A stretch of DNA of 64,000 nucleotides from Dictyostelium discoideum. Its lineage: Eukaryota. The DNA is taken from assembly GCA_000004695.1 (NCBI GenBank), contig CM000153.2:3360001-3424000 (forward strand), in the 5' to 3' direction. Shown one piece after another: positions 10,790-33,774 of this stretch (positions are counted from its first letter, which is position 1; each line of letters opens with the position of its first letter). A program made the translations under genes and the position numbers. Below the pieces are notes generated by a model, which was not told the DNA's origin, ran no database searches, and saw only the letters and a list, made by a program, of their open reading frames with translations.

Positions 10790-11040
10790 ATGTCAATCTT
10801 TGGTAAATATTAAAAATTAAAAAAAAAAATTTTTAGTAATATTAATCTTACTATTTCATTTTTATTTCCTTAAAATTAGCCTCAATTGTTTCAATCTCAA
10901 AAGTTAACAACAAAAAGAATTCAACAGCAGTTGGTTCATCAGAAAATAAAATTCAATACTCAACAAGTCAAGTTTCTGGTGGTCTTGTAAGTGATTTACT
11001 CTGCGATATTGCTGTTACTTTGGATAAAGCTGGCCTCTAA
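10790..11040 (+). CDS. HssA/2C/7E-like small protein (about 57 aa), exons 10790..10802 and 10880..11040
   Basis: 13-nt first exon ATGTCAATCTTTG with GTAAAT donor. TTAG acceptor. Product MSIFASIVSISKV...VSGGLVSDLLCDIAVTLDKAGL. Paralog at 11635. Confidence 0.5.
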
Positions 11041-11634
11041 ATTTGATTATATTAATCATAAACTCAAAACTTAAATAACATTACCAGTAACATTATTAAA
11101 TAAAATTACAATTTTAATTTAAAAAAAATTTGTTTCATTATATTTTTAATCTTTATTTTCTTTTATTATCAAATTAACATTTTTTTCAAAAAAAAATTTT
11201 ATTGGACGAGTTATCTGTTTTTTATTTATTTTTTTTTTTATTTGGTTTAAATTTTTTTTTTTTTTTTTATTATTTTGTAAAAAGAAAAAAAAAAGTAAAA
11301 TCTCTATGTCTTTTTATTTTTGAAATGTTATAAATTAATTTGTTTGTAAAATTGTTATTGGGTGATTTTTTTAATTAAAATAAATGTAAAAAAATTAAAA
11401 TCTATTGATTTTTATCTTCAAGATTTAATAAACATACAATAAATAACAAATCAATATAAATTACCAACATTTATTTGATTTCCAACTTTTTTACAAGCCT
11501 AATTTATTACATTGATTGACTAAGAAAAAAAAAAAAAAAGTGTATAAATATTGAAATAAATTAATTTCAAAATTCATTAAATTAAAAAAGAACAATAACC
11601 TTTAATTCTATAAAAAAAAAAAAAAACTAAAAAA

Positions 11635-11898
11635 ATGTCAATCATTGGTAACTATTTTAAATATTATTTATTATTTAAAGCCTTCATTTAAATAGAGATG
11701 ATATTAATATTATTTTAAAATGAAAATATAGCATCAATTACCTCAATCTCAAAAGTTTCATCAAAAAACATTCCATCAAGTTCAAACTTACCAACATCAA
11801 CTAACAAAATTCAATTTGGAAATAATCAAGTTTCTGGTGGTCTTGTTAGCGATTTGGTTTGTAATATTGCCACTGCTGTTGAAAAACTTGGTCTTTAA
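11635..11898 (+). CDS. HssA/2C/7E-like small protein paralog (about 59 aa), exons 11635..11647 and 11732..11898
   Basis: 13-nt first exon ATGTCAATCATTG with GTAACT donor. ATATAG acceptor. Product MSIIASITSISKV...VSGGLVSDLVCNIATAVEKLGL. Confidence 0.5.
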
Positions 11899-12093
11899 AT
11901 TTATTATTTAAGGTTAAGACTAAAAACAAAAAAAACAAACTCTATCATTACTATTATCAATAAAAACTTACCATTACTATTCCTATCTTTATTTTAAAAA
12001 AAAAAAAAAAAAAAAACTTTCTTATAATTTTTATTTACAATGGTTATTATTATTATTATTATTATCATAATTTATTGGGGGAGGGGGTAGAAT

Positions 12094-12287
12094 TTATGTT
12101 GCAGTAGTTGTTGTTGTAGTAGTTGTTGTTGAGGTAGTATTAGTAATTGGTGAAGCTGCTTCTGAATTTGTTGGGTTAAAAACATCGATATAATACGCAG
12201 ATGGTTTTGAATATAAATTATTAATTTCAAAAGATATGAGTTCAATTTCTTTATTATAATTATTTTAATTATCAATATTAGTAAGGT

Positions 12288-12324
<37 letters not shown>

Positions 12325-13198
12325 TAATTGATTATGTACATACCCTCTTTAGTTGTGTCAAATAATTCCCACCAAGGATAAGGTTCTTCAGGTAATTGTG
12401 TACCTAATATTCTTGATGCTAAAAATATAGAAGAAGCTGCAATTGATTCAGGTTTATATTGAATTGTAATAGTGGTTCTCATTGAATCATTTAAATAATT
12501 CCATGATTTTTGAGCCAATTCTTTACTTCTTTCTAACAGTTTCATATAATTTAAAATATATTTATGTGGTAAATCAACGTACATTAAAAATCCAAACTCT
12601 TTTAAAATATCAAATTCTGCTGCAATAACATCACCTTTTAAATCCCAATATGCCTATAATAATGATGATAATTTTTGTGTTTTTTTATTAATAAACAACA
12701 TAACTATTGATGATATTATTATTATCATTTACGTACCTGTTTAGTTGTATCAATATAGTCTATTGGTAAACCTTCTTTTTTTTGCCAAATTAAGGTGAAA
12801 ACATTTAATATATCTCTAATCTTTCTTTGTGGTTCTGTAAACTTAGTAGAGACAAAGAGTGATCCCATTGCTAACGTTTTTACATCATATTCTTTTAATG
12901 ATTTTCTACAATAAAATCTTTGAAATATAACCTGTCCTGTAACTGTTGTTGCTTGTGGTCTGGTGTATAGGAAAATAAAAGATAATGAATAAATGAATAA
13001 AACGAAAAAAAAAAAAAAAAAAAAAAGTTGAAATAAATTTATATGAAATTTGATTTGATCTTACAATTCCAATAATATACCAGCTTCTTGAATTACCTCT
13101 GTTCCATATCTTCTTAAATTATCTTCAATTTCAAATGATATTCCATCCTTTCTTGATGGTGAATTTTGAATTTCTTCATCACTAAAATACAAGTTCAT
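12094..13198 (-). CDS. Cyclin L-like protein (cyclin box), 4 exons: 13198..13065, 12959..12737, 12653..12344, 12248..12094
   Basis: Splice-joined product has clear cyclin-L matches: VIFQRFYCRKS, RKIRDILNVF, LPHKYILNYM, SWNYLNDSMRT, KPESIAASSIFLASR, PWWELFDTTKEE. Donors GTAAGA, GTACGT, GTATGT. Phases consistent. Confidence 0.75.
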
Positions 13199-13206
13199 AA
13201 CTTTTA

Positions 13207-31885: not shown

Positions 31886-32106
31886 AATAAAAATAATTAG
31901 CATCATTATCATCATTAAGCACTAGTTCTTTGAAATAAAGTGTTTCTTCAATTGAAACTGGTAGTTCAAGTGGTTCATTTGGTTCAAATGAAACATCGGG
32001 ATGGGGTTACCATCATTGAATAGTTGTCATCCATGTCCACCACCACGTCCAATTTGTCGTCCATGTCCACCACCACCATGTCGTCCAGTACCAAGATGTC
32101 ATCATT
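31881..32106 (+). pseudogene. HssA-like family copy 1 (second-exon fragment with in-frame stops), at the inner edge of the inverted repeat
   Basis: Homologous to 32571..32779 and 33569..33774 but with TAA/TGA in frame and no recognisable first exon. Confidence 0.4.
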
Positions 32107-32570
32107 AAAGTTTAAAATTAATAAATAGATCTTTAATATGTTTGGAATTTAAATAAATAATTTTTCTTTTTAAAAAATATATTCAAACACATTGAATTTG
32201 ATTTTAGAAAATTTACTACCAATAAAACTAATGATAATAAAATTCTTTTATTAACAAAATTTATTATTAAACAGAAATATAGAATGTATTAGTGATGCTC
32301 AAAAAACTGATGATTTAAAATATGTTAGAGAATGGGTTTATTCCTTTGTGAATCAATGTCCAATACATAATCCAACAGTTTTTTTTTTTTTTTTTTTTTT
32401 TTTAATCCTAGTCCTAATTTGGGATGTGCCATTGTGACCACTAAATCCATTTTCAATTTATTTCAACAAAGTTTGCAGGGTAAATTAAAAAATATAATAT
32501 TTAAAAAAAATAAAATTGCATAGGAAATTTATTTTTAATGAAATTTTTTTATTTTTATTAAAAATCTATT

Positions 32571-32862
32571 TTAATATTTATAATGGCATCTTGGTTCTGG
32601 ACGGCATGGTGGACATGGACGACAAATTGGACGTGGTGGTGGACATGGATGACAACTATTCCAATGGTGGTAACCCCATCCCGATGTTTCATTTGAACCA
32701 AATGAACCACTTGAACTACCAGTTTCAATTGATGAAACACTTGATTTCAAAGAACCAGTGCTTAATGATGATAATGATGCTAATTTTTATAAATTATTTA
32801 TTAATAAAAAAATAAATTTAAATTTTTTTTTTTTAGGAAAAAAACTTACAAAATAGGGTCAT
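32571..32862 (-). CDS. HssA/2C/7E-like small Cys/Pro-rich protein (73 aa), exons 32862..32850 and 32779..32571
   Basis: 13-nt first exon ATGACCCTATTTT plus GTAAGT. Product [73 protein letters not shown]. Confidence 0.6.
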
Positions 32863-33186
32863 TTTAAAATTTTAATAGTTTCTTGTTTAAAAATTAGAGT
32901 TTGATTTAATATTTTTTTTTTCTAATTTGGTTACAATTTATAGTTTTTTTTTTCTGAAAAAAAGAATAAAAAAACAAATAATTTTTTAATTTTATTTTTA
33001 AAATCATACTTTTTGTTTTTTCATTTCTATTTTTTTTTATATCAAAAAACTTAAACTCCCCCCCATTATATTTTTCTATTTGACTTGTTATATTATTTAT
33101 TCATAAATGATTACTTGTTATATTAATTATTATTATAAATGGGGCCTTTGGATTTTGAAATATCAAGAATTCTTAAAATAAAAAAG

Positions 33187-33229
<43 letters not shown>

Positions 33230-33303
33230 ATTCATAAAATTAAAAAACTATAAAAACAAAAAATCAATTTTTAAAATATTAATTATAAATCAAAAAAAAA
33301 AGC

Positions 33304-33774
33304 ATGAGTATTTTCAGTAAGTATAATTTTTTTAGAAATATTGTAAAACTCAGTAAAATTTGTCATAAATATTTTTAAAAATAATAATAAATAATTAATT
33401 ATAATTATTCCTACAAAATAAATGTTTTAATAATTAAACCACTTTGTTGATCCCCCTAACATGGTGAATTTCTTAATTTCGAAATTTTTGCTCAAATTTT
33501 CCTGTATTTTACAATATTTAAATAAATAAAATAAACTAAATTTAAACCCTTTTTTTAAATAAATATAGGTTCATTATCATCATTATCCACTGGTTCTTTG
33601 AAATCAAGTGTTTCTTCAATTGAAAACGGTAGCTCAAGTGGTTCATTTGGTTCAAATGAAACATCTGGATGGGGTCAACACCACTGGAATAGTTGTCATC
33701 CATGTCCACCACCACGTCCAATTTGTCGTCCATGTCCACCATGCCGTCCTGAACCAAGATGTCATCGTTATTAA
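33304..33774 (+). CDS. HssA/2C/7E-like small Cys/Pro-rich protein, exons 33304..33316 and 33569..33774
   Basis: 13-nt first exon ATGAGTATTTTCA plus GTAAGT, about 250-nt intron. Product [18 protein letters not shown]...[26 protein letters not shown]. Confidence 0.55.

Follow-up and report, generated by a model that had tools for sequence, protein, structure and literature searches.

The closest described relatives of the genes considered here belong to the sigN/hssA/2C/7E family, for which Vicente et al. (2008, PMC2257962) listed 96 sigN-related genes coding for proteins of less than 120 amino acids (aa). The hallmark of the family, found in 89 of these 96 genes, is a coding first exon of 13 nucleotides (nt) together with a single intron. 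Nine hssA-like genes were subsequently reported to be exclusive to cup cells of Dictyostelium discoideum (Kin et al. 2018, PMC6198379). One cup marker, beiE (DDB_G0276687), is described as “hssA/7E/2C related” (Kin et al. 2018, PMC6198379; Forbes et al. 2022, PMC9117722) and appears in the second of these studies as “cup; Ddis; hssA-related; no domain”. We analyzed a stretch of 64,000 nt of chromosome 4 of D. discoideum AX4 (contig CM000153.2, positions 3,360,001 to 3,424,000 of the forward strand), hereafter the window, in whose own coordinates all positions below are given unless another locus is named. It contains four intact tiny genes, labeled g1, g2, g4 and g5, and the remains of a fifth copy. 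Taken as a whole, the evidence makes it very probable that the four intact genes and the truncated fifth copy, a pseudogene, belong to the HssA/2C/7E/SigN superfamily and fall into two subfamilies. The roles of their products are proposed below with much less confidence.

Gene structures and kinship through the 5' unit

The window has about 22% G+C, with poly-A/T tracts and introns of the GTAA...TAG type. The four genes follow a common plan, consisting of 13 coding nt, a GTAA(A/C/G)T donor, an intron ending in TAG and a single second exon. g1 lies on the forward strand at 10790-11040, with a first exon of 13 nt (10790-10802), an intron of 77 nt (10803-10879, GTAAAT...TTAG) and a second exon (10880-11040), and its spliced product of 57 aa, MSIFASIVSISKVNNKKNSTAVGSSENKIQYSTSQVSGGLVSDLLCDIAVTLDKAGL, is identical to the annotated protein. 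It is followed on the same strand by g2 (11635-11898), whose exons (11635-11647 and 11732-11898) flank an intron of 84 nt (11648-11731) and code for 59 aa. In the second cluster, g4 is on the reverse strand (32571-32862; exon 1 32862-32850, intron of 70 nt 32849-32780, exon 2 32779-32571; 73 aa) and g5 on the forward strand (33304-33774; exon 1 33304-33316, intron of 252 nt 33317-33568, exon 2 33569-33774; 72 aa). The two are arranged head to head with 441 bp between them (32863-33303), and the local order is truncated copy (forward), g4, g5.

The hand-spliced frames are open over 57, 59, 73 and 72 codons, and an exact-sequence look-up showed all four products to be, residue for residue, annotated AX4 proteins: g1 is DDB_G0285549 (Q54N24), g2 DDB_G0285551 (Q54N23), g4 DDB_G0285567 (Q54N13) and g5 DDB_G0285569 (Q54N12), each recorded as a hypothetical protein. 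The four genes are therefore real and spliced as annotated, and we place high confidence in these identities. An initial annotation made from the DNA alone had positioned and spliced them correctly, with a GTAAxT intron after the 13-nt exon and products of about 57-73 aa, and had erred only in attributing the short exon to the fifth copy as well, which has none. It had also observed, rightly, that the open reading frame (ORF) list misrepresents these genes: mechanical calling yields truncated TTG-start and antisense ORFs (99, 71 and 37 aa) at g4 and g5, and no ORF in the correct frame at g1 and g2. Tiny two-exon genes of this kind illustrate the failure of prokaryote-style ORF calling. The exon-1/donor pattern ATGNNNNTNWTYNGTAANT occurs four times, against 0.27 expected from shuffles. 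Only 8 sites on both strands of the window consist of ATG, 10 nt and GTAA, and half of them are the starts of g1, g2, g4 and g5. No further family copies were found in the window by tblastn and a splice-aware scan.

All four genes belong to the HssA/SigN superfamily by virtue of their 5' unit. Their products, of 57 to 73 aa, are well within the size of less than 120 aa described for the family. The 13-nt exon is found in each of them and in two g1-like genes of D. firmibasis (see below), and is absent from the truncated copy. The position and phase of the intron, after nucleotide 13, are identical in the six intact genes of the two species. The exon opens a shared Ser-rich leader of about 37 residues, M-[ST]-[IL]-[FI]-x-S-[IL]-x-S-[IL]-S..., which is interrupted by the phase-1 intron. 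The similarity to HssA that the initial annotation expected from a database search was recovered for 4 of the 4 proteins, the sole Pfam family matched being PF05710 (HssA/B-related, “Coiled”), with no other at E<=10. The scores are 20.4 bits for g1, 20.2 for g2, and 20.2 and 18.5 for the other two (E about 1e-3). The proposed kinship with HssA, 2C and 7E is therefore supported by the exon hallmark, by the PF05710 matches and by the literature label of beiE.

Several observations nevertheless weigh against this placement and would be expected if the four were unrelated orphan genes, resembling HssA/SigN and each other only through Ser-rich low complexity and a chance intron position. The scores fall just under the PF05710 gathering threshold of 21.4 bits, and the matches extend only over residues 1-37 of the proteins (1-38 in g1) and positions 1-37 of a profile of 90, so that strict Pfam membership is borderline. 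The Gly/Cys/Ser-rich C-terminal half of the family (profile positions of about 38-90) has no counterpart, the matches ending at position 36-37 and the tails being Cys/Pro/His-rich or helical. g1 and g2 resemble g4 and g5 only over residues 1-38 (hhalign E 9e-4, probability only 22%), and their C-terminal halves have nothing in common. Moreover, the chromosome 4 entries of the 2008 table (Additional file 1 of PMC2257962) include none with matching sizes and intron lengths, and the four genes are therefore not among the 96 listed. Even so, we regard the orphan-gene explanation as highly improbable. None of 10 controls in which the first 40 residues had been shuffled matched PF05710 at E<=10, so that the order of the residues, and not their composition, accounts for the match, and every match of the real proteins is anchored at residue 1 of protein and profile alike. 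In addition, the intron stands after nucleotide 13, in the same phase, in six intact genes of two species, as it does in 89 of the 96 family genes, the D. firmibasis relatives score above the Pfam cut-off, and the beiE group has already been called hssA-related in the literature.

The kinship with HssA therefore concerns the leader, and the initial annotation went too far in treating the five copies as one family of HssA-like proteins. They have the leader in common but form two distinct subfamilies, of two and three members, alike only in the first ~38 residues, and their C-terminal halves are unlike that of HssA. A reading of the tails as a frame-shifted or antisense version of the Gly/Cys-rich tail was rejected, the alternative frames not being Gly-rich. 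Word-indexed protein searches with g5, g2 and a 10-sequence Cys/Pro profile returned only the clusters of the queries themselves, with no HssA sequences and no orthologues. Among the members of the 2008 list, a possible paralogue of the Cys/Pro type is sigN180 (chromosome 5, 72 aa, 12% identity to SigN1).

Similarity within the superfamily ends at about residue 37 and gives way to three types of tail, Gly/Cys-rich in SigN/HssA, Cys/Pro/His in the beiE-like proteins and an amphipathic helix in g1 and g2. By analogy with the precursors of toxins or of ribosomally synthesized and post-translationally modified peptides, which combine a conserved leader with a hypervariable core, the 13-nt exon, the phase-1 intron and the leader could represent a conserved 5' cassette bearing an interchangeable C-terminal “cargo”. 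In that case the leader would act as a common signal for targeting or processing and activity would reside in the tails, that of the Cys/Pro/His type perhaps serving as a metal- or redox-buffering peptide that cup cells produce in bulk. We offer this as a speculation that is unlikely to hold.

The g1/g2 branch

g1 and g2 are tandem paralogues with 60% aa identity and a ratio of non-synonymous to synonymous substitution rates (dN/dS) of 0.61. An exhaustive HMMER search of 1.84 billion representative sequences with a g1/g2 profile recovered one other cluster only, from D. firmibasis. Its member RB653_006349 is a hypothetical protein of 56 aa, encoded on CM069765.1 (10001-10247 of the extracted locus) by a gene with the structure ATGTCTCTCTTTG|GTAAAT and an intron of 76 nt. 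A second g1-like gene was identified on the reverse strand of the same locus (9050-9307; exon 1 9307-9295, intron of 87 nt, 56 aa). This gene is intact, although the public record contains only a 30-aa fragment of it (9050-9142). The two D. firmibasis genes are head to head, 694 bp apart, and their products exceed the curated PF05710 threshold, with scores of 24.7 and 26.0 bits. No ORF within 10 kb on either side of the pair matches the window, and synteny with it was not seen. Across the two species, the ORF, the start codon, the intron phase and both the N- and C-termini are conserved, with dN/dS of 0.4-0.7 both within a species and between the two. g1 and g2 represent a divergent minor branch of the PF05710 superfamily that had not been described and is also present in D. 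firmibasis. A dictyBase category named “57-aa protein family” is mentioned in PMC8327917.

The AlphaFold2 (AF2) model of g1 has a predicted local distance difference test score (pLDDT) of 61 and shows a disordered leader followed by a helix at residues 38-55 with pLDDT of about 80, which is acidic and moderately amphipathic. If formed, such a helix would most likely serve self-association or the binding of a partner.

The possibility that g1 and g2 are spurious or silent predictions without function has to be considered, since neither the full-text search nor the cup-cell expression supplement provided an expression or literature record for DDB_G0285549 and DDB_G0285551, and both are annotated merely as hypothetical proteins. 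Such an origin is improbable in view of the two intact D. firmibasis relatives, which have the same 13-nt exon, the same GTAAAT donor, conserved termini and dN/dS below 1. Moreover, canonical splice sites are present and a TATAAAT box lies 92-97 nt upstream of the ATG of each gene (at -97 in g1).

The Cys/Pro genes of the cup

The g4 protein consists of a Ser-rich leader, followed by HHW and by a tail with 6 Cys and 10 Pro. Its subfamily is characterized by the tail pattern C-x2-C-x6-C-x2-C-x2-C-x5-C (6 Cys, 10 Pro and 4 His), with flanking His and Trp. The proteins of g4 and g5 are 93% identical, while the nucleotide similarity of the two genes is limited to exon 2 and about 20 nt on either side. 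Clustering at 90% identity places both in a set of 10 D. discoideum sequences, corresponding to about 12 genes on several chromosomes, which also includes beiE (99% protein identity to g4 and 94% to g5). The 10 paralogues have in common an invariant Ser-rich leader and W-G-x-H-H-W motif, as well as the six Cys and almost every Pro, and vary at the end of the tail. A search with the Cys/Pro profile recovered D. discoideum members only, genes as tiny as these being easily missed by annotation. No fold is predicted by AF2 (mean pLDDT 59, predicted template modeling score 0.17), and a sequence search of the PDB gave no significant match, only chance matches to antibodies. In a crude hydropathy test the highest 9-residue Kyte-Doolittle mean was only 1.1-1.2, in the N-terminal segment TLFSSLSSL, so that g4 and g5 have no hydrophobic core of the kind found in signal peptides, a feature that secreted cysteine-knot or peptide-precursor proteins would show.

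g4 and g5 clearly belong to the beiE-like cup group known from the literature. DDB_G0285567 and DDB_G0285569 share a k-means cluster with beiE (PMC6198379, supplementary table). Their levels in cells of the cup, stalk and spores and in vegetative cells amount, in transcripts per million, to 31,877, 493, 96 and 4.2 for g4 and 33,706, 553, 175 and 4.0 for g5 (PMC6198379, supplementary file 5), with the reservation that reads mapping to several near-identical paralogues may blur these values. In the time course, read counts are near zero until 24 h and then reach 430-986 (PMC6198379), and each Cys/Pro cup gene accounts for about 3% of cup-cell mRNA (from the data of PMC6198379). The developmental regulation of g4 and g5 is documented by this literature only. 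Both 8Br-cAMP and high c-di-GMP elicit a response of cup genes, DIF-1 lowers their expression, and cdl1a is required by the late ones (PMC9117722). Full-text literature searches returned no mention of the four gene identifiers.

The 441 bp between g4 and g5 have TATA boxes on either side as well as a C-rich box, CTCCCCCCCA, at 33054-33065, and presumably include a putative shared or bidirectional promoter. A second isolated C/G-rich box (GGGGCC) is present at 33140-33150 in this otherwise AT-rich region. The two boxes are possible candidates for regulatory elements of a cup-specific promoter pair; G/C-rich GBF-like boxes have been noted in the sigN promoters (Vicente et al. 2008, PMC2257962).

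g4, g5 and the rest of the beiE-like group are turned on in cup cells and not before the very last stage of fruiting-body formation, probably through the late cup program described for beiE (PKA activation, high c-di-GMP and the Cdl1a factor). Their products would be small proteins of terminal differentiation, largely disordered and made in very great amounts. The Cys/Pro/His tail and the His and Trp that flank it would most likely be used for thiol chemistry, through disulfide cross-links or as a metal/redox buffer while the cup tissue dries. The assignment of thiol or metal chemistry to this tail, like that of association to the helix of g1 and g2, is tentative and more doubtful than probable, as it relies on composition and on a low-confidence model.

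The main alternative is that the transcripts act as RNAs and that their short ORFs are incidental, as has been suggested for hssA. An RNA-level function exists within the family, since in-frame and frame-shifted overexpression of hssA both suppress the statA defect (summarized in Kin et al. 2018, PMC6198379), and family members can be deleted without phenotype (PMC2257962; PMC8554618). Furthermore, despite the extreme transcript levels, none of the four window proteins appears in the searched supplements of a life-cycle proteome paper. Peptides are, however, expected to be missing for proteins of 6-8 kDa with few tryptic sites, and the codon-level evidence argues against an RNA role for the window genes. 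g4 and g5 differ by nine synonymous and four non-synonymous codons (dN 0.061, dS 0.257, dN/dS 0.24), which at the level of sequence comparison shows their coding regions to be under purifying selection. Ser5, one of the nine synonymous cases, has been preserved across the splice junction despite a switch of codon class from T|CA to A|GT that involves three nucleotides. All six Cys are retained in each of 10 paralogues that differ at the end of the tail, and the D. firmibasis copies of the g1 family keep their ORF, start codon and intron phase with dN/dS of 0.4-0.7. Finally, the sole copy without exon 1 has gained a stop codon and a frameshift. A function as RNA is accordingly given little chance here, and we favor selection on the proteins.

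This last copy, a Cys/Pro subfamily pseudogene on the forward strand (31881-32108), retains about 20 nt of the intron tail (31881-31900) and an exon-2 homologue (31901-32108). It aligns with g4 at 90.8% identity over 239 nt, from 31881 to 32118, and contains a nonsense codon (TCA>TAA), a frame-shifting deletion of 1 bp and an insertion of 6 bp. It adjoins one arm of an inverted segmental duplication of about 4.2 kb (28579-31880, forward, versus 54019-49767, reverse; 85-92% identity). At 31880|31881 the homology with the duplicate stops, its partner ending at 49767, and the homology with g4 starts. Since the copy begins, to the base, where the duplication ends, it was truncated at a rearrangement junction and has decayed since. 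The initial annotation had given g4, g5 and this copy the same Cys/Pro module, which holds for the first two; the tail of the third (32060-32108) is a variant that matches an intact paralogue of 73 aa, P0011 (KAM9957282.1), found in another assembly of D. discoideum. It is therefore from the PPPPC/VPRC tail subtype, and not from g4 or g5, that the dead copy derives.

The duplication itself encodes a transmembrane protein with epidermal growth factor-like repeats, the last ORF of which (31186-31713) has CLNGGSCNT...G.C.C repeats followed by a transmembrane segment. Elsewhere in the window, an inverted repeat of about 800 bp with 76% identity (13862-14651 versus 16446-17241) is probably a diverged gene duplicate, and a direct repeat of about 390 bp with 92% identity lies at 59376-59762 and 61129-61521. 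Many long trinucleotide tracts of the AAC/CAA type, coding for poly-Asn/Gln, are found at about 18.9, 37.2, 46.4, 47.4, 49.5, 51.4, 56.8 and 59.8 kb; they match one another at 80-100% identity and are typical D. discoideum coding repeats.

Comparison with known systems

The genes of the window belong to a published family of a model organism and are already known: their models are part of the reference annotation, and the literature contains both the hallmark of the 13-nt exon (2008) and the expression of the Cys/Pro genes in cup cells (2018). The present analysis adds a small unlisted branch of PF05710 with a helical tail, formed by DDB_G0285549, DDB_G0285551 and a D. firmibasis pair in which one gene is mis-annotated as a fragment of 30 aa. 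It also limits homology within the superfamily to a leader of about 37 residues, beyond which tails are swapped, and provides a codon-level sign of protein-level selection on the Cys/Pro products, which bears on the question of RNA versus protein for the family.

By analogy only, a comparison can be made with metallothioneins, small proline-rich proteins (cornifin) and keratin-associated proteins. These share with the Cys/Pro products their short length, dense CxxC and Pro motifs, the lack of a predicted fold and great abundance in one terminally differentiating cell type. They differ in that no sequence similarity to the Cys/Pro tail, including any match to a metallothionein family, was detected in Pfam (E<=10) or the PDB. 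The serine-rich chaperone protein SRCP1 resembles the window proteins in having a disordered region rich in Ser together with a short C-terminal segment that is functional. In its 2018 paper that segment is reportedly pseudo-amyloid, unlike the Cys/Pro tail. SRCP1, a suppressor of polyglutamine aggregation of 88 aa, is assigned to one large class with them, that of small D. discoideum proteins under developmental regulation (PMC8554618).

The resemblance to the HssA/SigN family comprises tiny proteins of less than 120 aa, two exons with 13 coding nt in the first, a short AT-rich intron, a leader of the form MT/S-L/I-F-x-S-I/L-S-S-I/L-S, clustered and often head-to-head genes, and, for g4 and g5, developmental regulation. 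The classical members differ in being 85-100 aa long, with a Gly/Cys/Ser-rich C-terminal half and a predicted hydrophobic segment, and are often expressed in prestalk cells from 10-12 h, whereas the window genes have as their tail a Cys/Pro/His module (g4 and g5) or an amphipathic helix (g1 and g2). The beiE group, for which only the promoter of beiE itself has been assayed by lacZ fusion, differs from g4 and g5 in nothing substantive. The two genes are further paralogues of this group and share its very high, late and cup-restricted expression and its occurrence in D. discoideum only.

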